DNA from: an uncultured Candidatus Saccharibacteria bacterium
GTDB taxonomy: Bacteria > Patescibacteriota > Minisyncoccia > Phycocordibacterales > CAIRYW01
NCBI GenBank assembly: GCA_964446625.1
Contig: CAYUPH010000003.1
Coordinates: 64,192-128,191 of the forward strand
DNA length: 64,000 nucleotides
Direction: 5' to 3'
Positions 1,144-30,412 of this stretch are shown in pieces. The translations under genes and the position numbers were made by a program. Position 1 is the first letter of the stretch. Each line of letters opens with the position of its first letter. Below the pieces are notes generated by a model. That model was not told the origin of the DNA. It made no database searches and saw only the letters and a list, made by a program, of their open reading frames with translations.

Positions 1144-2241
1144 TTACACCTTGAACTCAATCACATCTCCGTCTTTGACGATATATTCTTTTCCTTCTGT
1201 TCGTAGGTAGCCTTTTTCTCTGCACACGGCGTATGAACCAGCTTCAACAAACTTCTCATACGCAACAATGTCGGCTCTAATAAACCTATCTTTAAAATCG
1301 TTATGAATCGCTGCTCCGGCAACAGGTGCAGTTGAATTTTTTTGTATAGTCCACGCCCGCGTCTCGGCTTCTCCAGTCGTAAAAAAAGTTTCAAGTCCAA
1401 GCAGGTCGTAGGCTTTTTTAATAAGTTCATTTATTCCGTCGTCTTTTGCACCAAGCTCGCTTCGAAAGGCGCTCTTTTCCTCCGCGGACAGGTCTTTTAA
1501 CTCGTCTTCGATTCCAGCGTCCACAATTGTATATGTTGCTCCTTTTGCTTTAAAAAATTCAAGAAGTTTCTGCCATCTTTCATCATTTTCTTCGTCGAGG
1601 TTTTTTGCACCCGCCTTTTTATTGAGTACATACATAAAAGGCTTTAGTGTAAGGAGAGCCAGGCTTTTGATTACTGCTTTATCTTCCTCTGAAAGGTCCG
1701 CTTCACCTGCAAGTTTTTCCGCTTCAAGCGACGCTTTTATCTTTTCTAAAATCTCTTTTTCTTTTATTGCCACTTTGTCTCCCCTTTTTACATCCTTTTC
1801 AACATTTCCAAGTCGTTTTGTTACACTCTGAATGTCTGCGAGGATAAGCTCGAGGTTTATTACTTCAATATCTGCTAGAGGGTTGATTCGTCCGTCAACA
1901 TGAATAATATTTCCGTCTTCGAAAATTCGCACAACTTCAGCGATAGCGTTTACTTCACGAATGTGTGAAAGAAATTGGTTCCCAAGCCCTTCTCCTTCAC
2001 TCGCGCCTTTTACAAGGCCGGCAATGTCCACAAACTCTACAATCGCGGGCACAGTCTTCTTTGTATTTGAAAGTTTTGAAAGTGTATAAAGCCTCTCGTC
2101 AGGAACTGCAACGACGCCCACAGACGGGTCGATAGTTGCAAATGGGTAGTTAGCGGCAAGAACACCCTTTTTTGTAAGGGCGTTAAAAAGCGTAGATTTT
2201 CCCACATTTGGTAGACCAACAATTCCAATACTTAGATTCAT
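1144..2241 (-). CDS. ychF: ribosome-binding ATPase YchF (Obg-family GTPase, OLA1-like)
   Basis: 365 aa; N-terminal G1 motif GIVGLPNVGKSTLFNALT, C-terminal TGS domain (...KEYIVKDGDVIEFKV) typical of YchF. Confidence 0.9.
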   Translation of the reverse strand: MNLSIGIVGLPNVGKSTLFNALTKKGVLAANYPFATIDPSVGVVAVPDERLYTLSKLSNTKKTVPAIVEFVDIAGLVKGASEGEGLGNQFLSHIREVNAIAEVVRIFEDGNIIHVDGRINPLADIEVINLELILADIQSVTKRLGNVEKDVKRGDKVAIKEKEILEKIKASLEAEKLAGEADLSEEDKAVIKSLALLTLKPFMYVLNKKAGAKNLDEENDERWQKLLEFFKAKGATYTIVDAGIEDELKDLSAEEKSAFRSELGAKDDGINELIKKAYDLLGLETFFTTGEAETRAWTIQKNSTAPVAGAAIHNDFKDRFIRADIVAYEKFVEAGSYAVCREKGYLRTEGKEYIVKDGDVIEFKV

Positions 2242-2371
2242 TTTTTTGTTTGAAGTTAAAAAAGCCTAAGGAGTAAAAAGACTTTTCTCAATCATACCCA
2301 AAAACAGCAAAAAAACAAAAACAACTGCAAAAACTCCCTTTCTTGCTCCTCAAAAAACCCACACCAAAAAC

Positions 2372-2435
2372 TTCAAGGGCGGTCCTTGTAACAAACGAGC
2401 CTTATGCCACAACAAACTCAAGGACCGCCCTTGAA
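2372..2435. repeat. 17-bp perfect GC-rich inverted repeat with ~30-nt spacer (long hairpin) between small ORF and ychF
   Basis: ttcaagggcggtccttg ... caaggaccgcccttgaa; on minus strand followed by T-rich tract (aagtttttggtgtgggtttttt) so could act as terminator or structured leader. Confidence 0.5.
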
Positions 2436-2457
2436 AGTTTCTGTGGTTTACTTTTGT

Positions 2458-2682
2458 TTACTGGTTTAGAGCCTTAAGTTCGTTCTCATATCTTTTCATC
2501 ACTTCCATAACCGCGTCCATCTGGCTCTTTCCCTTTTTCATTTCTTCCTGAGACTCTTCAGCGATTTTTTTAAATAGGTCGGGGTTTTTCTCTATCATTG
2601 CAAAGATTTTCTCCTGTTGTTCCGCAGGAATATCTTTCATTTTGCTTTGTAAAAGTTTCTTCATTAAAAAGTTTCCAAACAT
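2458..2682 (-). CDS. small hypothetical protein (74 aa, charged/helical)
   Basis: Intact ORF with ATG, lysine/glutamate-rich, no recognisable motif. Confidence 0.35.
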   Translation of the reverse strand: MFGNFLMKKLLQSKMKDIPAEQQEKIFAMIEKNPDLFKKIAEESQEEMKKGKSQMDAVMEVMKRYENELKALNQ

Positions 2683-4111: not shown

Positions 4112-5395
4112 TTGCGCATTATTTTATTTGCCAAACACATGAGCGATATCAAAAACAAAGAATTAAAAGCTGAAGGAAAAAAGAAAATCGAATGGGCACG
4201 AAAGGACATGCCGGTTCTTTGTGAAATTGCAGACGATTTTAAAAAAAGAAAGCCTCTTAAGGGACTACGAATTGCCGCGTGCCTACACGTTACTGCAGAG
4301 ACTGCAAACCTATGTCGAACCCTTAAGGATGGAGGCGCGGAAGTTTTTCTTTGTGCATCAAACCCGCTTTCTACACAGGATGATGTCGCCGCTTCCCTTT
4401 CAGAAGATTTTGGAATTCATACTTTTGCAATTAAGGGCGAAGATTCAAAAACATATTTTAACCATATAAATTCTGTTCTGGATGCAGGTCCGCAGATTGT
4501 GATGGACGACGGTGCGGACCTTGTTTCCGAGCTTCATAAAGCAAGGCAAAATCAAATCCCAGAACTTATTGGAAGCACAGAAGAAACAACAACAGGTGTA
4601 ATTCGACTACAGGCACTTGCAAAAGAAAAGAAACTCCAGGTTCCTGTGATTGCAGTCAATGAAAGCAAGACAAAGCATATGTTTGATAACCGGTACGGTA
4701 CTGGACAAAGCACACTCGACGGAATTATACGAGCAACAAACAAACTCCTTGCGGGAAATGTTTTTGTTGTCGCTGGCTACGGCTGGTGTGGTAAGGGTCT
4801 TGCAATGCGAGCGCGAGGAATGGGTGCCCGAGTTGTTGTTACAGAAATCGATAGTGTCAAAGCCCTCGAAGCAAACATGGACGGCTTTGAAGTTCTACCG
4901 ATGTCAAAGGCGGCAAAAATTGCTGACTTTATTTGTACTGTAACTGGTAACAAACATGTACTGCGGGAAGAGCATTTTAAAACACTAAAGGACGGGTGTA
5001 TTATTTCAAACTCAGGACACTTTGATATCGAGATTGATCTCGTAGCTCTAAAGAAAATGAGCAAAAAAGTGCAGAGCGCTCGACCTTACAACGAAGAATA
5101 CGAACTAAAAGACGGACGAAAAGTATATGTGATTGCAGAGGGACGCCTTGTAAACCTTGGAAGCGCAGAAGGACACCCATCGAGCGTTATGGATATGAGT
5201 TTTGCAAACCAAGCTATGGCAGCAGAATTTTTGGTAAAGAACAAGGGAAAAATTGTAAAAGATGTTCATGTGCTTCCTGAAGAGTTAGACCACAAAATTG
5301 CAGGACTTAAACTAAAAGCGCTTCATATCTCGATAGATAAACTCACAGCCGATCAAAAGAAATACCTCAGTAGTTGGGAGGAAGGGACGAATTAG
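4112..5395 (+). CDS. ahcY: adenosylhomocysteinase (S-adenosyl-L-homocysteine hydrolase)
   Basis: 427 aa; NAD-binding Rossmann GYGWCGKG, overall SAHH architecture; true start may be the internal MSDIKNK (~4139). Confidence 0.9.
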   Translation: MRIILFAKHMSDIKNKELKAEGKKKIEWARKDMPVLCEIADDFKKRKPLKGLRIAACLHVTAETANLCRTLKDGGAEVFLCASNPLSTQDDVAASLSEDFGIHTFAIKGEDSKTYFNHINSVLDAGPQIVMDDGADLVSELHKARQNQIPELIGSTEETTTGVIRLQALAKEKKLQVPVIAVNESKTKHMFDNRYGTGQSTLDGIIRATNKLLAGNVFVVAGYGWCGKGLAMRARGMGARVVVTEIDSVKALEANMDGFEVLPMSKAAKIADFICTVTGNKHVLREEHFKTLKDGCIISNSGHFDIEIDLVALKKMSKKVQSARPYNEEYELKDGRKVYVIAEGRLVNLGSAEGHPSSVMDMSFANQAMAAEFLVKNKGKIVKDVHVLPEELDHKIAGLKLKALHISIDKLTADQKKYLSSWEEGTN

Positions 5396-7210: not shown

Positions 7211-7233
7211 TTTTCTGTATACTTGGAAGTGGT

Positions 7234-7383
7234 ATGACACTTGAAGAAATAATAGCTACCCCTCCCCTTCATGATTCTGTCCGACCTGATCCGGACCAAG
7301 GTATCCTAAAGCGAATGGCAGCTGAAGAAGGTGCTTGGTCTGACCTTGGGGATATTCTTGATGAATACCCAATTATCGGCTAA
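7234..7383 (+). CDS. small hypothetical protein (49 aa from internal MTLEEII)
   Basis: Short ORF directly upstream of a strong terminator; acidic; weak support. Confidence 0.2.
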   Translation: MTLEEIIATPPLHDSVRPDPDQGILKRMAAEEGAWSDLGDILDEYPIIG

Positions 7384-8900: not shown

Positions 8901-9437
8901 TTATTTTTTTCGCTGTGAATTTTTTAATACTTCTATATCTTTTTGAAGAAGTGAGAGCATTTCTTCAATTCGACTAATTGTGTCACTTTTTTGTTTTGCA
9001 TTTTCTTCATCGCTACCTTCCTCAATCTCCTCAACATCCTCTTGAATCTCATCAATGTCCTCCTGAATTTCGTCGACGTCCTCTTGAATCTCATCAATGT
9101 CTTCCTGGATTTCATCGACATTTTCTTCGATTTCTTCTACGTCTTCTTGGATTTCATCAATGTCTTCCTGAATTTCGTCGATATCTTTTCCTACCTCTTC
9201 GATTTCTTTTGTGTTTTGGTTTACTGAATACTGAATGAGTATAGAGAGGTAAATAGCCTCGAGGGAAACCAAGGTTGTAAGGAAAAGAAGTACTTGGTCT
9301 AAGTTAAACCCAAAAAGCGGAAGAACGAGACATAGTATAAAAAAAAGTGTATGAAGAATAAGTGAAGGTACTGAACCTACAGAGCGTGTCACTTTCTCCG
9401 CCAGTGTGTCTTCGGTTTTGAGTACTTTCTCTTTCAT
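8901..9437 (-). CDS. DUF1003-like two-TM membrane protein with long acidic heptad-repeat tail
   Basis: TM segments then LSILIQYSVNQNTKEIEE followed by (EIQEDID/EIEENVD)n repeats. Confidence 0.55.
   Translation of the reverse strand: MKEKVLKTEDTLAEKVTRSVGSVPSLILHTLFFILCLVLPLFGFNLDQVLLFLTTLVSLEAIYLSILIQYSVNQNTKEIEEVGKDIDEIQEDIDEIQEDVEEIEENVDEIQEDIDEIQEDVDEIQEDIDEIQEDVEEIEEGSDEENAKQKSDTISRIEEMLSLLQKDIEVLKNSQRKK
9017..9205. repeat. ~9 tandem 21-bp repeats inside CDS 8901..9437
   Basis: cctcttgaatctcatcaatgt / cctcctgaatttcgtcgacgt etc.; encodes acidic heptads; coding repeat, not CRISPR (no spacers). Confidence 0.7.
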
Positions 9438-9777: not shown

Positions 9778-10635
9778 ATGCATATATCAATCGCAGCAGA
9801 AACACTTTTTCATATCGGCGCTTTCCCTGTCACAAACAGCATGCTTATGGCATGGATTGTCGTTATCTTTCTTTCTGTAACAGTCTTTTTTGTTAGTCGA
9901 AATCCAAAGAAAGTTCCAGGACGGCTTCAAGCGCTTATGGAGCTTATTCTCGAGAAATTTGTTGATTTTATGCAAGTGTTTACTGGCGACAGAGCTCTTG
10001 TAAAAAAATATCTTCCAATTGTTGGAACAATCTTTTTCTTTGTTCTCTTTTCTAACTGGGCAGGAATTTTGCCTGGAGTTGGAACAATAGGTTTTTATGA
10101 AAAACATGAGGAGGAAGCGGTCAAAGAAGTTGTGGACATAGAAGGAGTAGAGGGAAACCCTGCTTCTCCTTCCGAAGTTCACGAAGCCGAAGCTCCTACT
10201 TCAGAGACTGCAGAGCATGAAAACGCTCCGCTTGTACCATTCTTTAGATCTGGATTTGCTGACCTCAACATGACGCTTGCGCTAGCGCTCATTGTTGTGA
10301 TTTCAACACACATCATTGGGTTTGTTTCAATTGGAGTTTCGCACCACATAGGAAAATTCTTACAAAATCCATTCAAAAAACCTATCGGCGCTTTCATTGG
10401 TTTTCTAGAGCTTATTGGTGAAGTTTCAAGAGTTGTCTCATTTTCTTTTAGGCTTTTTGGAAACCTGTTTGCAGGAGAGGTTCTTCTCATGATTATTTCT
10501 TCTCTTGTTCCCTATTTTATTCCGATTCCGTTTCTAGGGCTTGAAGTATTCGTAGGTTTTGTGCAAGCACTCATCTTCTCTACCCTTGCAATGACTTTTA
10601 TCGCAGCTTCAACGCAGCACCACGAGGAGCACTAA
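9778..10635 (+). CDS. atpB: F0F1 ATP synthase subunit a
   Basis: Conserved FRLFGNLFAGEVLL (essential Arg) region; contains unusual acidic ~55-aa insertion (EEEAVKEVVDIEGVEGNPASPSEVHEAEAPTSETAEHEN). Confidence 0.9.
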   Translation: MHISIAAETLFHIGAFPVTNSMLMAWIVVIFLSVTVFFVSRNPKKVPGRLQALMELILEKFVDFMQVFTGDRALVKKYLPIVGTIFFFVLFSNWAGILPGVGTIGFYEKHEEEAVKEVVDIEGVEGNPASPSEVHEAEAPTSETAEHENAPLVPFFRSGFADLNMTLALALIVVISTHIIGFVSIGVSHHIGKFLQNPFKKPIGAFIGFLELIGEVSRVVSFSFRLFGNLFAGEVLLMIISSLVPYFIPIPFLGLEVFVGFVQALIFSTLAMTFIAASTQHHEEH

Positions 10636-10666
10636 ATAAAATTAAATTTAGGTAGAAAAGTAACCG

Positions 10667-10694
10667 GCCGGCGTTCCTCTAGAGGAACGCCGGC
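10667..10694. terminator. perfect 28-bp GC palindrome just after atpB stop
   Basis: gccggcgttcctct|agaggaacgccggc; no clear T-tract, may be terminator/processing hairpin or part of the downstream structured element. Confidence 0.35.
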
Positions 10695-10699
10695 ACAAC

Positions 10700-11795
10700 C
10701 CACCACTGAAAAAACTTTCACTTTAATTTTTGCACGCTTTAATAAAACCGTGCAAGTGGAAAACGAAGTCAGCCCAGTCCCCCGTGTGGGGACTGGGCTG
10801 TGAGCTTTGTTGAATGGGGAATGGGAGCCGCCACCGTGTGTGGCGCTTAGAAGGGGTACGCTCGTCCATTGTATCCTCCTTCGAGGGACTGTGCTCCCAA
10901 TTCAACCAACGAGCTCTAATTAGAGTAATAACATAGATGTATTTACATGTCAATACGTAAACGAAATGAGCCCCGGCCTCCTGCTTGCGCAAGTGACCGG
11001 AGCTCTCCAGAGAGTATTTCGGCGCTAAGTAGGCGTAAAAGCCGGCAGCAGCCCTCTCTGGATTCGGTGAACAAGTTATGGTGTAACCTCCAACCACACC
11101 TTAACCCATCCACCAAAGTGAGAGGACGGAGAACCAAACTTTCCTAAACCAACGGATTGTTAAGTGTTGATTTGCCTAGTTCTCCGCCCAAAAGAGCGAA
11201 AATTGTGAAGTGATATTACTCACATTTTCGCTCTTTGTCAATATAAAATAAATGAGGAAGGTCCCGCCGGCACAGAGTGCTAGCGGGACCTTTTGTTAGC
11301 CACCCTGCTCCGGCGAATCCGACCCTTCGACTCGGTTTGGAGCATGAATGGCTCTACCTTTTGGTGGTTGCATGGCAACCTCTTTCGGCTAACCACCAAA
11401 TTGGGTGGCAGAGAAGCGCACGGCGCCTGATGAAACTCACCCGAGCCCAGCAGACAATTCCATTTTGCCCGCGCTTCTCCGCCAAATTTAAGGCCAAGGC
11501 GACGATTGATTTCCGAAAACCCGTCTAGTTGGGTTTATTTGCTGTTCGTCGCCTTGGCCAAAGCATGAAAACCGTTTATTAGCCTACTCCTTAAGTAAAA
11601 ATAGTCAAATGAAGATGGCCCGGCTGCAGCTGCAGCCGGGCCCCGATTCGAGCGTGCAAAAGCCCCGTTAAGCACCTCGATGTTCCGAGCGGCCAAGCGA
11701 ATGCACACAGGGCCCAGATACCCTGGTGCATTTCCGCTCGAAAGATTAAAAAGCCGCTAAAACTATACATTAAATATACTTAATGTCAAACAGTT
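10700..11795. ncRNA. candidate large structured non-coding element (unclassified) between atpB and atpE
   Basis: ~1.1 kb without convincing ORF, locally GC-rich in AT-rich context, dense in long perfect stems (cagcccagtcccc/ggggactgggctg; ggtcccgccggc...gccggcgggacc-like; ggccaaggcgacg/cgtcgccttggcc; gcccggctgcagctgcagccgggc; ttcgagcg/cgctcgaa; ttggtgg/ccaccaa enclosing ggttgcatggcaacc). Confidence 0.35.
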
Positions 11796-11800
11796 TTCCC

Positions 11801-11829
11801 TTGCGAGAGCCTAAAATTTGGCTTATAAT
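11801..11829 (+). promoter_or_regulatory. sigma70-like promoter for atpE-atpC
   Basis: TTGCGA - 17 nt - TATAAT about 55 nt upstream of atpE ATG. Confidence 0.55.
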
Positions 11830-11885
11830 ACGCGCAAATGACCGAAAGGTCTTATTTATTTGTTTATTAATAATTATAAAAAAAC

Positions 11886-12113
11886 ATGGAAGTAGAAAAC
11901 CTTAAAGTATTTGCAGCAGCCCTTGCTATCGGTGTCGGAGCTCTCGGTCCCGCTATTGGAATCGGAAACCTTGCCGGAAAAGCTATGGAATCAATTGGAC
12001 GAAATCCAGAAGCTGCTTCAAAAGTACAATCAGCGATGATTCTTGCTATCGCCTTTACAGAAGCGATTGCAGTTTACGCTCTTGTAGTTGCCCTTATTAT
12101 CCTTTTTGCTTAG
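11886..12113 (+). CDS. atpE: F0F1 ATP synthase subunit c
   Basis: 75 aa hairpin proteolipid, conserved carboxylate helix ...[20 protein letters not shown]. Confidence 0.9.
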
Positions 12114-23062: not shown

Positions 23063-24430
23063 CTACTCCGGGTCAAAAATAGAAGGCGAAAATAGCTCTC
23101 CTGCAAGAAGTTTTGCAACTTTCCACCCACCATAAATTGATGGCATGAGTCCAACACCGTTACACCCAAGGTTATAAAAGAGATTATGATCTTCTTTTTC
23201 CGGACCAATGAGTCGAATACGGTTTTTTGTGTAGCCCATGAGTCCGTGCCAGCTAAAAGTGTGCTCTATTTTTTTGTTCGGGTGCAGTTTGTAGGTTTTT
23301 TTCACAAAGCTGTCTATCTCGCCAATGATTTCGTGTGTAAGGAGTGCTTTTTTGTCATACAAATGTTTCTGTTCAACAAAATTCCCGGGGCCTCCAACAG
23401 AAATAAGGTTGTGCTCCACTCCCTTTTCGTATTCATATTGCCTTCGAGTCAGATAAAAGTAGTTTAATTCGTCGCTCGCAAGCCCAGTATCTGGGTTTTG
23501 AATGTAACTTATCGCAATCGGCGGTTTATTCATCTTTTCAAGGTAAGCAGACATGTAGCCAATATATCCTTCGAGGTTCTCGTGGAATTTTCTGTTAATA
23601 GAAAGTCCGCCTTTTGCAAATATTTCAATATGCTCGAAGCCGTTCGTACAAAGAACAACATCGATTGCAGTGATTGTGTGGGTTATGGCGTCCAAAATCC
23701 CATAGTTTTCTTCCATTACTATTTTTTTAATCGGTGTTTTCTCAAAAAGTGTAAATCTCTCCGGATATTTTCGAGACAAATAGTCTGCAATTTCATTACA
23801 AATGAGCGCACTGTTCGCACACCCCTTCTGTGAAGACAAAAGCGCAACATAGCTGTCGTCAGTTGTTTCAAGACACTCCATAATTTTTTCGCGAGCTGTA
23901 AGTTCATAAAGTCCCGCGTACTTTTCAGGAATTTCGCGAAGGAATTTTGCATCGTCTGCAATTTGTAATCTTTCAAAGTTGATTTCACCTTCCTTTCGAC
24001 AACGATTATTTTCAAGACACTCCAGAACATGCTGATACCCAGTAAGTCCTGTGTAGCCAGTAAAGCGAGCAACAGGAATATTTAGTCCAGCTTCTGTGTA
24101 CATAAGGTCAAAAAGAGCCCATGTTTCCTCAATGGCTTTTTGACCTTCGGTTGCCATTTTTACTCCGAACATTTCAGCAATTTCGTAGAGTTGCTTTTCA
24201 AAATACGTCACCATGTGTCCCCCGTTGTGCCCTGAAGCCCCATGCGCAACACGGTCTGCGTCTACAAGAACAACATTTTTGTCTGTCTCTCGTAGTATAA
24301 AAAAGGCAGTTGAGATACCTGCAATACCAGCTCCCACGATGACAACATCAGTACTTACATCTTCTGTAAGTTTTTTTGCTTCTCTTTGAATGTTAAGCTG
24401 ATGTATCCAAGGGGAACGATTTTCGTGCAT
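23063..24430 (-). CDS. FAD-dependent oxidoreductase (DAO/glycine-oxidase-like)
   Basis: N-terminal dinucleotide fold VVIVGAGIAGISTAFF. Confidence 0.75.
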   Translation of the reverse strand: MHENRSPWIHQLNIQREAKKLTEDVSTDVVIVGAGIAGISTAFFILRETDKNVVLVDADRVAHGASGHNGGHMVTYFEKQLYEIAEMFGVKMATEGQKAIEETWALFDLMYTEAGLNIPVARFTGYTGLTGYQHVLECLENNRCRKEGEINFERLQIADDAKFLREIPEKYAGLYELTAREKIMECLETTDDSYVALLSSQKGCANSALICNEIADYLSRKYPERFTLFEKTPIKKIVMEENYGILDAITHTITAIDVVLCTNGFEHIEIFAKGGLSINRKFHENLEGYIGYMSAYLEKMNKPPIAISYIQNPDTGLASDELNYFYLTRRQYEYEKGVEHNLISVGGPGNFVEQKHLYDKKALLTHEIIGEIDSFVKKTYKLHPNKKIEHTFSWHGLMGYTKNRIRLIGPEKEDHNLFYNLGCNGVGLMPSIYGGWKVAKLLAGELFSPSIFDPE

Positions 24431-24478
24431 ATCATAAATTATATCATAAGAAATTTTGGCATTAAAAAAAGCAGCTGG

Positions 24479-24931
24479 TTAGGCTGCTGCGAGGAGCGGA
24501 GGTGGTTTGGAACCTCTGCTGTAGTCCATAAAGACCCGAATCCCTCTCTGCGCAAGTAGATGCAGGATACTCTCGGCGAGCTCAGGGACAGAAAATAGTG
24601 TAGACGGCCGATGAATAGTAACTGTCATCGATCCAGTTTTCCCTGTTTCGTAAACCGCATCTATCCACAGAAGCAGTTCGTCACACTTCCCCTTAACTAC
24701 TTGCAGGGGCTCCAACGGGTTGCGAGAAGACCTGTTTCCTAAGCCGGTCTCATTTATAATGATTCCGGTTGCGCTCCTAAGGTCCCTTCTTGCGAAAACA
24801 ACAGGAACATACAAATAGACTTGCTTTCCTGTGATTTGCTTATTCGGGAATTCTTCCGGCTCACAAAGACCCGAAAGTCTCACAAGGGTTTCGCGAGCTA
24901 AAAGCTCGATGGCTGTTGCTTGTTTCTTCAT
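24479..24931 (-). CDS. hypothetical protein, GC-rich, member of 3-gene paralog-like cluster
   Basis: 150 aa; GLCEPEEFP motif resembling FCxVxxxMPCxP of neighbours. Confidence 0.45.
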   Translation of the reverse strand: MKKQATAIELLARETLVRLSGLCEPEEFPNKQITGKQVYLYVPVVFARRDLRSATGIIINETGLGNRSSRNPLEPLQVVKGKCDELLLWIDAVYETGKTGSMTVTIHRPSTLFSVPELAESILHLLAQRGIRVFMDYSRGSKPPPLLAAA

Positions 24932-25010
24932 CTACCAAAATAATACAACATTTAGTATAAAAAGTAAACAAATAAAAAAACTCCTAGGAAACCCTAGGAG
25001 CCTAATTGTG

Positions 25011-25439
25011 TTATTTGCCCCAAAGCAGATTTGCTAGCTTCGGAGTAGGAACTAGAATGATATCCTCCTCTCCTTCCTGCCCTATCATTTGCATCTCCAC
25101 GAAGCCCTCTAGGACCAGCCTCATGAAGCCGTGTGAAAGAGCAAGAAAGTCATCAATCCCCAATTCCACAAGCGGGATAGCTGCATGATGGTCAACTTCT
25201 TTTCCGAGCGCACCTTCCCTCCACTGGAGCTCCAGGTGTCTCAAGAAAGTTGTCACAAGAATCCCTACCCACCTTCCCTTGTCACAGGAGAAGTGAACTA
25301 GCTCTTCTGCTATGTAACATGCCTCCTCTGATAGTGTGGCGTGTGGACGAGGAATCTTGCGTCCAGCAAGTTTTTTGGGCTTGCAAGGCATTTTTGACAG
25401 CACTTGGCAAAAGCCGTCAGCAATTAAAGGATTTGCCAT
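25011..25439 (-). CDS. hypothetical protein, GC-rich paralog B
   Basis: 142 aa; GFCQVLSKMPCKP ... LVPTPKLANLL, paralogous to 25507..25911 product. Confidence 0.5.
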   Translation of the reverse strand: MANPLIADGFCQVLSKMPCKPKKLAGRKIPRPHATLSEEACYIAEELVHFSCDKGRWVGILVTTFLRHLELQWREGALGKEVDHHAAIPLVELGIDDFLALSHGFMRLVLEGFVEMQMIGQEGEEDIILVPTPKLANLLWGK

Positions 25440-25506
25440 AAAGAACAGGCGCTATTTTACAATATTTTTGCGAGATTTCAATAAAAAATCCCCAGGCGTT
25501 GGGGAG

Positions 25507-25911
25507 TTATGTGAGAGCTGCTTGCTGAAGTAGAGTCCCCACAAGTTTGGCAGTGGGAAAGTAGAAGACTCTACCCTCAAGGAATGATAGTTCTACCCAC
25601 CCTTCCCTTGTAAGTGTAATCAGTTGAAGTTCAACGATGACACCTTCGGCTTGACTTCGTGAATCTTTGAAGAGATGTTCTGCTGAAACTCCTACCCAGA
25701 ACCCCTGAGCCCCGGAGTTGGATAGTAGTCGAACTACTGCTACAACTCCAGGTATTGCACAGGCAAGGATAGTTCTCTCCAAATCTTTGCCGAGGATGTC
25801 TTGAGGGGTGCAGGGCATTTCTTCTGCAACAGTGCAGAAGTCTCCGCCCAGATAGGAATGATTTGTCATAAAGAGCGTTTGAACTCTACAACACTTTTGA
25901 GAGGATTTCAA
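25507..25911 (-). CDS. hypothetical protein, GC-rich paralog C (possible roadblock/LC7-like)
   Basis: GDFCTVAEEMPCTP ... IPGVVAVVRLLSNSGAQGFWVG ... YFPTAKLVGTLL; true start may be internal MTNHSY. Confidence 0.5.
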   Translation of the reverse strand: MKSSQKCCRVQTLFMTNHSYLGGDFCTVAEEMPCTPQDILGKDLERTILACAIPGVVAVVRLLSNSGAQGFWVGVSAEHLFKDSRSQAEGVIVELQLITLTREGWVELSFLEGRVFYFPTAKLVGTLLQQAALT

Positions 25912-26238
25912 TTACTCGTCTCTGTTTTCTCTTTCCTCCATTTCTCGGTAGCAAATTTCTTTATAGCCAGTGTTGCATATGTCGAGTATTTCGCTCTCAG
26001 AAAATCCGGAGATTTTATAAGCTGACTCATTATTTTCATCCATAAGTGCAACCGTGTATGTTCCATCTTCTTCCCTTTTTAAACCATAGAGGCTCACCCA
26101 CCCAATACCAATTCCCTCTTTGATTTCAGGTACTGTTTTTAAATCTGGTGGAGTTTCATCAAAAGTGCCTCTAGGAAAAAAGTAAGTTTCTAGTAGTTCT
26201 TCTATTTTACTTCGGTGTTCAGGTTCTTTTTCGCTCAT
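25912..26238 (-). CDS. hypothetical acidic protein (108 aa)
   Basis: Intact ORF, AT-rich codon usage like host. Confidence 0.4.
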   Translation of the reverse strand: MSEKEPEHRSKIEELLETYFFPRGTFDETPPDLKTVPEIKEGIGIGWVSLYGLKREEDGTYTVALMDENNESAYKISGFSESEILDICNTGYKEICYREMEERENRDE

Positions 26239-26738: not shown

Positions 26739-28622
26739 TTAAGATTGCCATTTATCCAAGAGATTAATAGTTTGACTTACGGGCTGATTTTTTCTATTTG
26801 AAATTTTACCAACTTTCATTACAACTGGGATTTGAGCAAGCAAGCCAGCAAGAATACATGTACCAGTTGCTAGGTTTGGAATTGAATCAGCAGATACCTT
26901 ATCCAAATAGGCAATTGTTTTTTCAACAGCCAATAAATCATTATTATTAATAAGTCTGTGTAGAAAATAATTATGAAGTTGTGAAATGATTGTCGGAGAT
27001 ATATCTGAAGGTCTTTGACTTGAAATAGTAAGGAATGTACCGAACTTTCTTCCTTCTTTAATAATCTCCTCAAATGTTTCCAATCTGTAATCTTTCCATT
27101 GCTCACTCTCACGTTGAGAACTACCAGATAGTATATTGTGAGCTTCATCAATAATTATATGTAGCGAATTTTCCTTATTATTACTAGATTTTTTAGTATC
27201 ATAAAGCTCCTTACAAATAAGTAGAGGTAGCATTTTTCTAATATCCAAGTTTACATCCTTTAGGGATATAATAGTAAGATTTTTAACAAACCTTTCTCTT
27301 CCTTGCACTGAAATAACCTTTTCCAAATCAAGAACCCTTTTTTCCATTCGCTTGATTAATGGAGAAAGATGTTCACGGTTTGAAAAACCTCTAATCATTT
27401 CATCATAATATTTTATAATAATTCTGACTCCAATTTTCTTAATACCCGATAATAATGAAACATCAATAGTTTCAATTGAATTAATGGTGTCTTCGATTTT
27501 TACAGCAAATGTTGGCGAATCACTATAGATTTTATCTGATAGGCCAGACTTTAGGTAAAAACTAATATTCTCATTGCCACCAAATAAATTCCCTTTAAAA
27601 TAATCTCCGGCTAATTTAAGGTCATTATTATCCAAAAAAGAAGCTAATTCATAAAGTAAATCTACAGTTAGTGACCTATCAATATTTTTTCCACTAATTG
27701 AAGTCGCAGCTTTTATTTTCTCTATAATCAACCCTTTAAATGATTCATCAGTATTTATTCTAGATTCTATGTAATAATCTTTTATTGCCCTATTTATAAA
27801 TGGAATCTGAGTCTTTTCTGTAGCTTCAAGAAAGATTGACCAGAAACTTACATCTTTTAAGGTCTCCTTTTTTATAGGAAACCTATCATCTCCCTCATCT
27901 GTGCTAGTTGAAAGTTTATATACATTTTTATATTTTTTTTCAATTATCACATCATCGTCAGCATATTCGCCATTAAAATCAATCATAAAAAACTTTGCTT
28001 TTGACTTAAAACTGGCATTGTCTTTAAATTTCTTAAACAATTCTCTAAATAATTTTGCCAATGTGTATGATTTTCCACTTCCTGTGTTTCCAAAAATTCC
28101 GATATGACTAGCAAATAAACTATTAATACCTAAATCAATTCTCTGCCCATCATCGTAAGCTAATGTACCAACCTCGATTCTCTCATCTCCTTTTTGTATA
28201 AAATTGTGGATTTCTTCAAACTCCTCCTTGCGTAATAAAAAACACTTATTATCAATAAGGGGTAATTCCTTAATACCTCTGTAAAATGAACCGTCCTCAA
28301 TAAAGCCGAGTATTTTGACGTTTAAAATTCTATTTATCTTTTCTTTATTACTCTTATAACTTGTTTTAAGATAGTCCCTATCTTCAGTGATTGACTCTCC
28401 TTCAATTTTTCCAACCATCTCTAAAAAACCTTTTTTTATTTTAATGTATCCACCCACAAAAATATTTTGGATTATGTCTCCTTTATATAAAACTGAAGAA
28501 GTATTTTTTCCCTTATCAACTTTAATTTTAATTGATTGCCCCTCAACAGCAAAAACTACCCCAATTCTAAATATTGAATTATCAACAATATGTGTTCCGG
28601 TATTATTTTCCAGTATTTTCAT
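26739..28622 (-). CDS. herA: HerA-like (FtsK/HerA superfamily, DUF87) ATPase, partner of SIR2 in SIR2-HerA defence system
   Basis: 627 aa; N-terminal HAS-barrel-like region, Walker A GIFGNTGSGKSYTLAKL, Walker B LHIIIDEAHNIL; 6 nt downstream of SIR2 gene. Confidence 0.8.
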   Translation of the reverse strand: MKILENNTGTHIVDNSIFRIGVVFAVEGQSIKIKVDKGKNTSSVLYKGDIIQNIFVGGYIKIKKGFLEMVGKIEGESITEDRDYLKTSYKSNKEKINRILNVKILGFIEDGSFYRGIKELPLIDNKCFLLRKEEFEEIHNFIQKGDERIEVGTLAYDDGQRIDLGINSLFASHIGIFGNTGSGKSYTLAKLFRELFKKFKDNASFKSKAKFFMIDFNGEYADDDVIIEKKYKNVYKLSTSTDEGDDRFPIKKETLKDVSFWSIFLEATEKTQIPFINRAIKDYYIESRINTDESFKGLIIEKIKAATSISGKNIDRSLTVDLLYELASFLDNNDLKLAGDYFKGNLFGGNENISFYLKSGLSDKIYSDSPTFAVKIEDTINSIETIDVSLLSGIKKIGVRIIIKYYDEMIRGFSNREHLSPLIKRMEKRVLDLEKVISVQGRERFVKNLTIISLKDVNLDIRKMLPLLICKELYDTKKSSNNKENSLHIIIDEAHNILSGSSQRESEQWKDYRLETFEEIIKEGRKFGTFLTISSQRPSDISPTIISQLHNYFLHRLINNNDLLAVEKTIAYLDKVSADSIPNLATGTCILAGLLAQIPVVMKVGKISNRKNQPVSQTINLLDKWQS

Positions 28623-28628
28623 TTATGT

Positions 28629-29675
28629 CTATACAACTTCTTCAACAAGGTCATTTTGACCAATAATCGGACCAAAAATATCTTTATTTAATGTTTCAAA
28701 ATTATATTTCCTTCCATCTTCTGGTACCACAATTTTAATATTTTTATTTTTTGCTTCGTTTTCCATTTTCTCAAAAATTACCGATTTGCTTCCATGTGCA
28801 AATATGTATATTTTTAATGTTGGATTTGATGCGGCCACCCGAGTGGTCATATCCCTAATATGTTCATCGGCTAATGAAGATCCAATAACAAACAATACAC
28901 TATTTTCTTTTTCTAATTCATTTGAATATATCCTCAATAAGTCATAATAGTACTGTTGAAGAAGTGTGGTTTCATATTTAGCCTTCGTCGGATTCACGAT
29001 AACAAGCTTCTTATAGTATTTATCGAATTCATCACCATCTATCTTGTCAGCAACATCTCTAACATTCTGTAGATTCTTGTCTAATGAGATTACAGCCTCA
29101 TTTCCTATCTCATCAAACTTCCAAGTTAATGATCCGTGAATTTTAAGTATATTAAATACGGGTATTTCAGATGTGTTTTCATAATGAAGACTTTTCATAA
29201 AATATGATTTTTTAAAATTACCTAGATTGAATGTTGGATTAAATCTACCATTGAATCCATCATTGAATTCTATCCCTGTCCCTTCCAACGCCTTTTCAGA
29301 AAAAATATCTATATTTGTCGTAAATATATTTACTTGTTTAGTTAGAATAGAATTTTCTCTTTTTAGAACCAAATTATTTAATATTTTGTAAAAATTCGTA
29401 TAATTAGACATAACATAGTCTTTGTCTACTTCTAAAACATCATCCAATACCTTAATATTTCCTAACATAACTTTATTAAAATACTCTTTTTTCTTACTCA
29501 AGATTTCTTCACTTGTTTTAGATGTATCAGATAAAAAGAGCTCGATATCATTAAGAGTATCAAGAAAAGGCTTTGAAAGACCCGCACCTATCAAAAAGTT
29601 AATATTTGCACTGTCAATTGTTTTCTTTATATCTCTGAGAAGCGGTGTGTAATTAGACATATGTTGATTATGCAA
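28629..29675 (-). CDS. SIR2-family (DUF4020/SIR2_2-like) NAD+-utilising protein
   Basis: 348 aa; NINFLIGAGLSKPF Rossmann/NAD motif, TTNIDIF (Asn), KIHGSLTW (catalytic His), VLFVIGSSL C-terminal motif. Confidence 0.8.
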   Translation of the reverse strand: MHNQHMSNYTPLLRDIKKTIDSANINFLIGAGLSKPFLDTLNDIELFLSDTSKTSEEILSKKKEYFNKVMLGNIKVLDDVLEVDKDYVMSNYTNFYKILNNLVLKRENSILTKQVNIFTTNIDIFSEKALEGTGIEFNDGFNGRFNPTFNLGNFKKSYFMKSLHYENTSEIPVFNILKIHGSLTWKFDEIGNEAVISLDKNLQNVRDVADKIDGDEFDKYYKKLVIVNPTKAKYETTLLQQYYYDLLRIYSNELEKENSVLFVIGSSLADEHIRDMTTRVAASNPTLKIYIFAHGSKSVIFEKMENEAKNKNIKIVVPEDGRKYNFETLNKDIFGPIIGQNDLVEEVV

Positions 29676-29832
29676 TATTTTAAGTTTTTTTCAATCTTAC
29701 CGTATTTACTGGCTTGCCAGTCCAAACTACTTTTATGCATAGTACGATTTTATTCAAAAGCATATTATTATATATGTACAATTGAATAAGTAAGTAGCCT
29801 AAACTAAAAATCATAAAACTTTTTGCATGGTG

Positions 29833-29863
29833 AAAATTAAGTCTTGAAGAGACTTAATTTTTT
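29833..29863. terminator. AT-rich 10-bp hairpin between tRNA region and SIR2 promoter region
   Basis: aattaagtct-tgaag-agacttaatt followed by TTTTT. Confidence 0.35.
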
Positions 29864-29990
29864 AGTTAAAACTTATAAAAACTAGATAATTCCAGACCCC
29901 TAGCGGAATTTCTCCCTCGACTCAAGACTCGTCAGCCACTCGTCTTGGTCTGGGCACCAGCTCACTTGTTTTTACTGCTGTAAAAACATA

Positions 29991-30046
29991 GTTCCGCTGT
30001 TCGAATCCGCACGCAAGCAAAGTAGTTTGCTTGCTTAGGGTCCACC
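29991..30046 (+). other. tRNA-Ala 3'-half-like fragment in inverted orientation (T-arm-like + acceptor 3' strand)
   Basis: ccgctgTTCGAATCCgc ... ttagggtccacc mirrors AGCGGTTCGAATCCGCTAGGGTCCACC of adjacent tRNA-Ala but with 24-nt hairpin insert; cannot fold as tRNA. Confidence 0.4.
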
Positions 30047-30049
30047 GGA

Positions 30050-30076
30050 AAAACAAAAGCCGCCTTGTGGCGGACT
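30050..30076 (-). terminator. Rho-independent terminator after tRNA-Ala
   Basis: minus strand GTCCGCC-ACAA-GGCGGC followed by TTTTGTTTTT. Confidence 0.6.
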
Positions 30077-30091
30077 TAAGTTTTTCTACGG

Positions 30092-30164
30092 TGGACCCTA
30101 GCGGATTCGAACCGCTGACCTCCTCAGTGCAAATGAGGCGCTCTACCAACTAAGCTAAGGGCCC
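30092..30164 (-). tRNA. tRNA-Ala (anticodon UGC)
   Basis: GGGCCCTTAGCTTAGTTGGTAGAGCGCCTCATTTGCACTGAGGAGGTCAGCGGTTCGAATCCGCTAGGGTCCA; cloverleaf folds, G3:U70 Ala identity pair, GTTCGAATC T-loop, CC encoded. Confidence 0.9.
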
Positions 30165-30200
30165 TTGTATCCAATTGTAACATAACAGAGTCCTTAGTTT

Positions 30201-30258
30201 CCTTCATTTGCACAAATGAGTCGGCTAAAATCTTCTTTGCCAACTAAGCTAAGGGCCC
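30201..30258 (-). pseudogene. degenerate partial copy of tRNA-Ala 5' half
   Basis: 19-nt exact duplicate GGGCCCTTAGCTTAGTTGG (acceptor + D-arm) plus CTCATTTGtGCA anticodon-loop-like piece, remainder diverged. Confidence 0.5.
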
Positions 30259-30412
30259 GTTTTAATACAATTAAGATTCTATATGATTCCTCCTTTTTTC
30301 GCAAGAATCGGGGTTTTGCCCTCAGAGCCTTCCCTACTTATACACACTCGAGCCTTTGAATAGAGGGGTGCCTTGATATAATTAGTCTATTATTGGGTAA
30401 TAAATTATAAAC

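Follow-up and report, generated by a model that had tools for sequence, protein, structure and literature searches.

The 64,000-nucleotide (nt) stretch of contig CAYUPH010000003.1 that was analysed as a whole (the window) stems from an uncultured Candidatus Saccharibacteria bacterium and contains, between the ATP synthase genes atpB and atpE, a spacer of 1250 nt (window 10636-11885, from the atpB stop at 10635 to the atpE start at 11886). We assign a probability of roughly 0.6 to the reading that the block 10644-11800 of this spacer holds on its minus strand, in tandem, four genes for structured small RNAs, each transcribed on its own (U1 to U4), together with a terminal hairpin module (U5). 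The best-supported description is that of four, perhaps five, orphan small-RNA genes antisense to atp, which constitute a strain-variable accessory cassette between two core genes. The identical 1250-nt spacer recurs in many independent assemblies, and the arrangement is therefore real.

Strand-specific signals in the spacer

On the minus strand, positions 10644-11858 fold with a minimum free energy of -540 kcal/mol (z = -21), compared with -470 kcal/mol (z = -10.7) on the plus strand, and in ungapped stems scored symmetrically 6 G.U stand against 0 A.C in the minus-strand reading. A previous sequence-only reading of this DNA had described the segment as dominated by RNA helices, with which the fold agrees, and the palindromes and helices quoted there are all present. 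Among the helices are a 28-nt perfect palindrome at 10667-10694 and a 26-nt one at 11617-11642, the only perfect palindromes of at least 20 nt in the 64 kb, and stems of 13 base pairs (bp; 10770-10782 / 10788-10800), 14 bp (11492-11505 / 11546-11559) and 10 bp (11360-11369 / 11391-11400). The fold is local, with 93% of the base pairs spanning at most 100 nt and 96% of the energy retained upon restriction to spans of at most 120 nt, and consists of about 16 strong abutting hairpin domains of -11 to -43 kcal/mol each, the apical loops of which are mostly 3-12 nt long and have no motif in common. As the pairs are almost all local and the block divides into promoter-to-terminator units, it does not represent one globular RNA.

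Promoter-like and terminator-like signals are found on the same strand. Three TTGACA -35 boxes and one TTGACT are located on the minus strand, each 9-16 nt past a terminator stem; TTGACA is expected there 0.3 times, is absent from the plus strand, and a count of three was reached in one of 500 shuffles. A consensus scan retrieved two minus-strand promoter-like sites, TTGACA-16-TATAGT (11789-11762) and TTGACA-17-TAATAT (11241-11213), and terminators at 11642-11617, 10800-10770 and 10694-10667. TTGACA-17-TATTAC with an upstream TG (10953-10925) and TTGACT (11608-11603) were read from the minus-strand sequence, and two further U-tailed hairpins (11292-11258 and 11005-10968) were recognised from sequence and folds, which brings the terminator-like hairpins on this strand to five. 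The U-rich tails of the hairpins occur on the minus strand only.

These signals bear on what the sequence-only reading had proposed, namely a large non-coding RNA (ncRNA), a regulatory leader, or a degenerate intron-like or mobile RNA. On the plus strand, this would be a single large ncRNA, a leader or 3' untranslated region of the atp mRNA, or a degenerate intron. Such a plus-strand RNA would suit a region that is long, GC-rich and structured, and the plus strand, too, folds beyond chance (z = -10.7). However, all strand-specific evidence (G-U pairs, U-tails and TTGACA) points to the minus strand, the fold is only local and shared out among units with their own promoter and terminator, and conservation of the block does not extend to the sister species. 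For an intron-like or mobile RNA there is neither a credible Rfam match, even at E<=10, nor a split gene, nor anything ribozyme-like. The true atpE leader has about 50 nt and follows a conserved atpE promoter (11801-11829) downstream of the block; an atpE leader, riboswitch or attenuator was rejected on the position of this promoter and on the location of the structure on the opposite strand. Neither an intron nor a large ncRNA nor a leader on the plus strand is thus a realistic option, and all three are effectively excluded.

The predicted units

U1 (gene 11606-11789; minus strand, as all units) would be transcribed from TTGACA (11789-11784) and TATAGT (11767-11762), which are separated by a 16-nt spacer and agree with the consensus in 11 of 12 positions. 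The predicted RNA reaches from ~11755 to ~11606 and comprises hairpins at 11758-11688 and 11687-11643 and a terminator consisting of the 26-nt palindrome (11642-11617) and the tail AUCUUCAUUU. U2 (gene 11246-11608) has a weak promoter with TTGACT at 11608-11603 and an uncertain -10 box; its RNA, predicted from ~11575 to ~11246, contains four hairpins set end to end (11559-11492, 11483-11407, 11406-11356 and 11353-11298) and, abutting them as the fifth, the terminator 11292-11258 with the tail CCUCAUUUAUUUU, and folds with -153.7 kcal/mol (z = -8.9). U3 (gene 10958-11241) displays TTGACA (11241-11236) and TAATAT (11218-11213) at a distance of 17 nt, and the RNA (~11206 to ~10958) would start with a U-rich 5' leader (UUUCGCUCUUUUGG) and continue with hairpins at 11189-11124, 11117-11063 and 11062-11006 and the terminator 11005-10968 with the tail AUUUCGUUU. 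Its fold amounts to -112.7 kcal/mol (z = -8.4) on the minus strand versus -78.1 kcal/mol on the plus strand, with 16 versus 3 G-U pairs. The promoter of U4 (gene 10757-10953) is composed of TTGACA (10953-10948), a 17-nt spacer and TATTAC (10930-10925) after TG, and the RNA (~10918 to ~10757) of a branched 115-nt domain (10916-10802) and the terminator 10800-10770 with the tail ACUUCGUUUU. The terminal module U5 (10650-10756), for which no own promoter was recognised, holds a hairpin (10755-10730) and the terminator-like 28-nt palindrome (10694-10667) with the tail CGGUUACUUUUCUACC.

A small-RNA (sRNA) gene was taken to possess its own promoter and its own intrinsic terminator on the same strand and to be devoid of an open reading frame (ORF); by prediction, the spacer would fit this description of independent bacterial sRNA genes. 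Each unit would possess a sigma-70-type promoter directly after the terminator tail of the preceding unit, a short U-rich single-stranded 5' end, a body of two to five abutting long hairpins, ~150-330 nt in all, and a last hairpin which together with a U-rich tail would serve as intrinsic terminator. The number of units is uncertain, since the promoter of U2 is weak and U5 has none.

Sibling sRNA clusters such as OmrA/OmrB, PrrF1/PrrF2 and LhrC1-4 are composed of paralogues with conserved seeds, in which a sigma-70 promoter and an intrinsic terminator delimit every single gene. The block resembles them in its predicted succession of several short non-coding genes head to tail, with an own promoter, a Rho-independent terminator and the -35 box straight after the terminator. 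Unlike siblings, though, its units are not detectably similar to each other: pairwise local alignments are not significant, with the best one, U2 versus U3, equalled in 2 of 200 shuffles (15 comparisons, uncorrected). The exception is the base of the first internal hairpin, GRCGGAGRA / UUCUCYGYC, which U2 and U3 share in both alleles. In contrast to typical seed-pairing sRNAs, the RNAs of the block are predicted to be far more structured and their bodies are hypervariable within the species.

Alleles within the species

Conspecific contigs were retrieved by exact matching to AtpE and to proteins of the AtpB cluster; a look-up with atpZ gave no additional allele. Three independent assemblies (L106, L107 and L109) represent one allele with a spacer of 1257 nt, L102 and L110 being partial. 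The flanks of L106 are nearly those of the window (98.5% nt identity in atpB, 99% in atpE plus atpF), but the spacer is a mosaic of 42% to 100% identity, in which diverged blocks of 42-78% are sharply bounded. Identity is complete in the atpE leader and promoter and in the U1 promoter, is 97-100% in the first 13 nt of U1, drops to 56% in the U1 body, which nevertheless still folds as two hairpins, and returns to 97% in the U1 terminator. The first hairpin of U2 is 83% identical and hairpins 2-5 are not alignable (42%). The promoter region of U3 (61%) and its first hairpin (78%) are diverged, with hairpins 2-4 at 97%, and U4 combines an identical promoter and a body of 99% identity with a terminator of 62%. 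U5 ranges from 76 to 86%.

Folded independently, L106 gives hairpin domains of the same order, number and approximate size as the window, with hairpins of 71/45/26 nt in U1 of the window versus 65/46/28 nt in L106, and of 68/77/51/56/35 nt versus 69/90/43/44/29 nt in U2. Hairpins 2-5 of U2 are again four and of similar sizes, with a terminator built from a different 13-bp stem and a U-rich tail. The L106 spacer is minus-favoured as well (z = -27.8 versus -13.3). Promoter hexamers and U-tails are conserved in L106 while spacers and stems vary: the U3 promoter keeps both hexamers although ~7 of 17 spacer bases differ, and in U2 TTGACT and GAGTAGGCTAATAAACGG are conserved with a variable stretch in between. 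As the U3 hexamers are kept while the spacer changes, the 46-nt hairpin at 11236-11191 is allele-specific and not an RNA helix.

Where sequences remain alignable, changes mostly keep the pairing. In the terminator stem of U4, four adjacent pairs are changed on both sides and the tail is identical; in U3, pairing is retained through one-sided changes. The hairpins of U5 are kept in L102 and L106 with one compensatory U-A to C-G change, one C-G to U.G and one A-U to G.U (minus strand), and linkers and loops differ. Among 182 pairs of well-aligned helices, 98.9% of the cells are paired. Five of these pairs are changed on both sides, a number reached in 2 of 500 shuffles and, with 0, in none of the slid controls, and 11 are changed on one side with pairing kept. 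Read on the minus strand, 11 of the one-sided changes are between Watson-Crick and G.U pairs versus 2 to A.C (p = 0.02). In the two or three alleles available, the structure appears to be upheld by selection on the minus strand, the one predicted to be transcribed. Taken together, the conservation between alleles, the pairing-keeping changes and the G.U bias support selection on minus-strand RNA helices and expression signals, and not on most of the sequence.

Several points weigh against the array of sRNA genes. Its promoters and terminators are consensus predictions only, with a weak promoter in the case of U2 and none recognised for U5, and the covariation statistics are weak because they derive from two or three alleles only. 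The sole single-nucleotide polymorphism among otherwise identical assemblies, at 11496 (L086 and L108; plus-strand A to G), is located in the first hairpin of U2, within its 14-bp stem. It turns a minus-strand pair into an A.C mismatch, whereas a plus-strand RNA would have G.U at this place, and is the one clear departure from the minus-strand pattern. The multi-base compensation in palindromes can stem from templated mutation at the DNA level or from gene conversion. No partner protein or target was found among the ORFs of the window and 56 translation-initiation regions, and no homologue of the block beyond this species in searches of other loci and of viral and metagenome contigs.

The compensatory changes are also what an alternative without RNA function would draw upon, in which the block is palindromic DNA of selfish or mutational origin, be it GC-rich hairpin elements of the REP, MITE or 'GC cluster' type or quasi-palindromes from template switching, that has accumulated in a permissive spacer, with compensation reflecting palindrome correction at the DNA level. 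REP/BIME, MITE-like and mitochondrial 'GC-cluster' elements are multi-copy GC-rich palindromes with a consensus, and the block shares with them GC-rich hairpin sequences in spacers within or between operons and a strain-variable presence. Long perfect palindromes with zero spacer number two in the window and both are in the block, the four adjacent pairs of the U4 terminator have changed jointly between strains that differ by ~1% elsewhere, and the content of the slot turns over among close relatives. Also, the stems of the block are unlike the A/T-flanked terminators elsewhere in the window. On the other hand, the hairpins have no consensus and each is unique in the sequence compared: comparison of the block with the rest of the window and all other loci (~110) by nhmmer gave no match. 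Neither the strand-specific asymmetry of G.U over A.C, nor the hexamers conserved despite variable spacers, nor U-tails and an enrichment of TTGACA restricted to a single strand are expected of such DNA, and we consider this alternative unlikely.

The slot between atpB and atpE

The spacer separates atpB (9778-10635, plus strand; ORF with PF00119), which encodes the F0 a subunit and is the last gene of the atpZ-atpB unit, from atpE (11886-12113, plus strand; ORF with PF00137), which encodes the F0 c subunit and opens the atpE-atpC unit; atp and riboflavin genes are its neighbours. With a GC content of 0.478, compared with 0.393 for the whole window, and up to 0.565 in 200-nt windows, it has the highest GC content among the long intergenic regions of the 64 kb; that its GC content lies above that of the surrounding DNA had been noticed in the sequence-only reading. 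The latter had also called the separation of the two genes unusual, and rightly so, as in relatives with atpE after atpB the gap is mostly ~20-200 nt and exceeds 300 nt in five only. The placement inside one operon had to be revised, though. The atpE gene has its own promoter, TTGCGA-17-TATAAT (11801-11829, plus strand), followed by a ~50-nt leader with a small hairpin (11840-11851) up to 11885, and the window, L088, L089 and L090 all retain CTTG in the -35 and TAnAAT in the -10 box. With this conserved promoter downstream, the block is situated between two transcription units.

The closest AtpB relatives among species-representative genomes are 45-47% identical and come from metagenome-assembled genomes (MAGs) labelled Moraniibacteriota, Uhrbacteria or Parcubacteria. 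AtpB itself has 285 amino acids (aa) compared with 244-256 aa in most close homologues; the surplus apparently resides in an insert of acidic character (EKHEEEAVKEVVDIEGVEGNPASPSEVHEAEAPTSETAEHENAP) that separates membrane segments, roughly at residues 108-150.

In the sister species (L088), the AtpB protein of which is 95% identical, the flanks are 81-83% identical at the nt level and can be aligned, which also holds for the intergenic DNA upstream of atpZ. Homology ends at window position 10643 and resumes at 11859, and in between an unrelated sequence of 544 nt is found, which again favours the minus strand (-194 versus -163 kcal/mol; z = -12 versus -6.8) and bears minus-strand promoter-like sites. 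The block is consequently not conserved in relatives, being replaced in L088 and a mosaic within the species.

The slot varies further in other relatives. L089 and L097 have gaps of 110 and 28 nt with nothing extra. A 457-nt gap in L090 holds an unstructured 76-aa ORF without family match (4827-5057, minus strand), and a ~1.1-kb gap in L008 a sigma-70-like gene (1613-2488, minus strand) with Sigma70_r2 and r4 domains; as other minus-strand genes occupy the slot there, it is regarded as a variable insertion site. ORF-free and strongly structured spacers (z ~ -7) of 436 nt in L099 and L100 (1975-2410 and 2001-2436, respectively) and of 359 nt in L101 (1535-1893) fill the slot in genomes with AtpB proteins 51-53% identical; which of their strands is transcribed is ambiguous. 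The 968-nt spacer of L052 (4736-5703), a MAG labelled Saccharibacteria, is equally structured (z ~ -7) with no ORF above 97 aa, and L024 has a structured spacer of 315 nt. The L052 spacer shows two copies of G[GT]CAGTCCTTTC..AAGG[GT][GT]AGAGG and no Rfam match, and may represent another unclassified RNA in the atpB-atpE slot. By nhmmer and comparison, none of the relatives' spacers resembles the block, and no motif common with the structured spacers of L088, L099 and L101 was found.

Its position makes one ask whether the block serves atp itself, as a cis-antisense regulator or insulator that ends and pairs with atpB read-through, with the U1 and atpE promoters setting the a:c subunit ratio and no targets elsewhere. 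In the window allele, no plus-strand U-tract terminator follows atpB, the U1 and atpE promoters are divergent, back-to-back and 12 nt apart, and structured spacers fill the slot in L088, L099/L100 and L101, all of which would agree with such a role. L089 and L097, however, manage with 28-110 nt, one terminator would suffice, and the presence of four units and of a hairpin architecture kept despite sequence replacement are left unexplained. This function on its own appears doubtful to us. With the array of sRNA genes, insulation would arise as a by-product, if the array stops and pairs with atpB read-through and thereby insulates atpZ-atpB from the atpE unit.

Coding potential

That the segment contains no credible ORF, as the sequence-only reading had stated, is backed by database searches. 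None of the ORFs in the 1250-nt spacer exceeds 124 aa, nine spacer ORFs gave no match to Pfam and PHROGs at E<=1, and the 124-aa ORF found, among 1.84 billion representative proteins, a single borderline match (E 8e-5), which covers no more than 33 residues in a protein of 1304 aa. One might still envisage the remains of a gene for a protein, or several genes encoding small proteins, as the slot carries on the minus strand the sigma-70-like gene in L008 and the 76-aa ORF in L090, and as one 48-aa ORF (10869-10723, minus strand) is preceded by a strong Shine-Dalgarno sequence, the only small ORF of the spacer with such a sequence. This ORF, however, crosses a terminator and is frameshifted in L106. 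With ORFs of the relatives' slots as queries, tblastn did not match the spacer, and a decayed sigma factor or small ORF as in the relatives was rejected after comparison with their ORFs. Moreover, no credible homologue emerged from the protein searches, and z values of -8 to -21 are atypical of coding DNA. A decayed gene is effectively excluded as an explanation of the spacer, with next to no probability left for it.

Comparison with known RNA classes

Membership in an Rfam family was defined by a covariance-model score at or above the gathering threshold of the family, with RNase P, tmRNA, 6S, SRP, group I/II introns, OLE, GOLLD, ROOL, HEARO, raiA, riboswitches and counter-transcribed RNAs (ctRNAs) among the families covered. 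At this threshold of Rfam 15, the sole match in the whole window is a tRNA-Ala (30092-30164), and a permissive scan of 10500-12000 gave only noise, with nothing credible at E<=10, the best being Pxr with 25.7 bits against a threshold of 80 and a ctRNA match having an E value of 6.3. ARAGORN predicts no tRNA or tmRNA in the spacer region. The Rfam scan that the sequence-only reading had asked for thus leaves its designation as unclassified in place. Gathering and permissive scans of L088, L099, L101, L052, L024, L079, L015, L090 and L089 gave no match either.

The spacer shows no similarity to phage and plasmid collections, and no direct, tandem or CRISPR-like repeats were found in it. A composite U2/U3 motif had no matches in viral contigs and three in metagenome contigs, which are ascribed to chance as all are within a GNAT-like ORF of a 53%-GC organism. 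Viral contigs were also searched for five 20-22-mers taken from the units. A single 21-mer matched exactly, in the 71-kb viral contig L096 (IMGVR_UViG_3300033149_003801; 7218-7252), where 35 of 38 nt are identical to the U4 terminator hairpin (window 10766-10803); this match, too, is judged to be chance, since it lies inside an ORF predicted for the phage and no similarity is seen beyond it. Duplex-energy target prediction against the 56 translation-initiation regions performed no better than shuffled controls.

Further candidates were rejected. A sponge of the CsrB/RsmZ type, which would expose many GGA motifs in its hairpin loops, is not indicated, as GGA occurs 22 times compared with 18.4 +/- 3.1 in shuffles and is fully unpaired in only five cases. 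For an integron attC or CALIN array, no pair of R'' (RYYYAAC) and R' (GTTRRRY) core sites bracketing a palindrome was found on either strand. An origin of replication (oriC) would call for clustered DnaA boxes and an AT-rich unwinding element, but there is no TTATCCACA with up to one mismatch in 10636-11885, a region that is GC-rich.

Small, stable hairpin RNAs with variable specificity are known from plasmids and phages. In ctRNAs of the RNAI/CopA type and the c4 RNA of P1/P7, the fast compensatory divergence of stems and loops in short stable hairpins has led to strain-specific specificities. The RNAs of the block would likewise be short and very stable hairpin RNAs that diverge by compensatory change, but the block has no replicon, rep gene or phage context and no target is encoded opposite.

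The large ncRNAs OLE, GOLLD, ROOL and raiA came to light in screens of AT-rich genomes for long intergenic stretches of high GC content, an approach described in PMC6429828 and PMC11109978. The block has in common with these loci that it is a long, GC-rich and ORF-free intergenic region of an AT-rich genome. Unlike them it matches no model, consists of a local string of hairpins without long-range junctions and is not conserved past the species.

Hypervariable hairpins under a conserved architecture also recall guide RNAs, with variable hairpins as specificity determinants and an effector encoded elsewhere. The stem-loop arrays of TIGR-Tas systems, which occur in Patescibacteria (candidate phyla radiation, CPR) and their phages, consist of successive hairpins whose palindromic stems vary, and they lack long direct repeats (PMC12045711); the block resembles them in this. 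By definition, TIGR arrays possess two 8-12-nt spacers with box C/D, or alternating edge and loop repeats of 8-12 nt (PMC12045711), for which the loops of the block, mostly 3-12 nt, are too short; repeated motifs are absent and the units appear to be individually promoted and terminated and not derived from one processed precursor. A TIGR-Tas array should also adjoin a gene for a Tas (Nop-domain) protein, but no Nop/Tas, reverse transcriptase, IS110, TnpB, Cas or integrase domain was detected in the scanned window ORFs of at least 120 aa, although Pfam may miss a divergent Tas. A guide-RNA-like array is consequently very improbable.

Other features of the window

A HerA/DUF87 helicase gene (26739-28622, minus strand) and a SIR2_2 gene (28629-29675, minus strand) constitute an anti-phage pair of the SIR2-HerA type in a low-GC stretch (0.30-0.32) adjoining tRNA-Ala (30092-30164, minus strand). 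The intergenic region 29676-30412 next to this tRNA gene is structured on both strands (z ~ -10) and repeats parts of tRNA-Ala, the first 19 nt of which recur in direct orientation at ~30256-30238 and the 3' end in inverted orientation at ~30046-30000; these partial copies resemble scars left when DNA integrated at the tRNA gene. Just upstream of the defence pair, in a region of raised GC content (0.449 for 24001-26000), three consecutive ORFs of 150, 142 and 134 aa (24479-25911, minus strand) have no Pfam match. Finally, a gene at 8901-9437 (minus strand) encodes a 178-aa protein that starts with a membrane segment and contains a repeat rich in acidic residues (EDIDEIQEDVEEIEE..), with sub-threshold coiled-coil-type Pfam matches only; unannotated ORFs of 173-178 aa are located at the syntenic position in L081, L099/L100 and L114.

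Implications

The cassette would be an accessory RNA of fast turnover that is anchored between conserved core genes. Within the species, some hairpins are exchanged for unrelated sequences predicted to fold alike, and in the sister species the whole slot would hold a different structured minus-strand RNA. The conserved architecture and the conserved U-rich 5' end in combination with freely replaceable hairpins suggest recognition by shape, perhaps with strain-dependent specificity. As stable structures, the hairpin RNAs might be recognised by a protein or another RNA, with a specificity that would depend on the strain by analogy to antisense or immunity RNAs of plasmids and phages. More speculatively, and rather unlikely in our estimate, Patescibacteria might use an RNA-only cassette as strain-specific determinants, as immunity, decoy or guide RNAs versus phages, rivals or the host, with the protein partner encoded elsewhere and the spacer being a recombination-anchored hotspot of exchange.

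To our knowledge, almost nothing is known about the ncRNAs of Patescibacteria/CPR, which are uncultivated and have reduced genomes. The locus provides a concrete set of candidate RNA genes with coordinates, predicted ends and natural alleles that point to selection for structure. Its evolution is unusual in that, between flanks 98.5-99% identical, whole hairpins are replaced by unrelated ones and the architecture is kept. If not expressed, the block would instead illustrate in a striking way how palindromes turn over between core genes. If expressed, it could serve as a model for structure-only constraint or diversifying selection on bacterial RNAs and could point to an unrecognised RNA-based specificity system.

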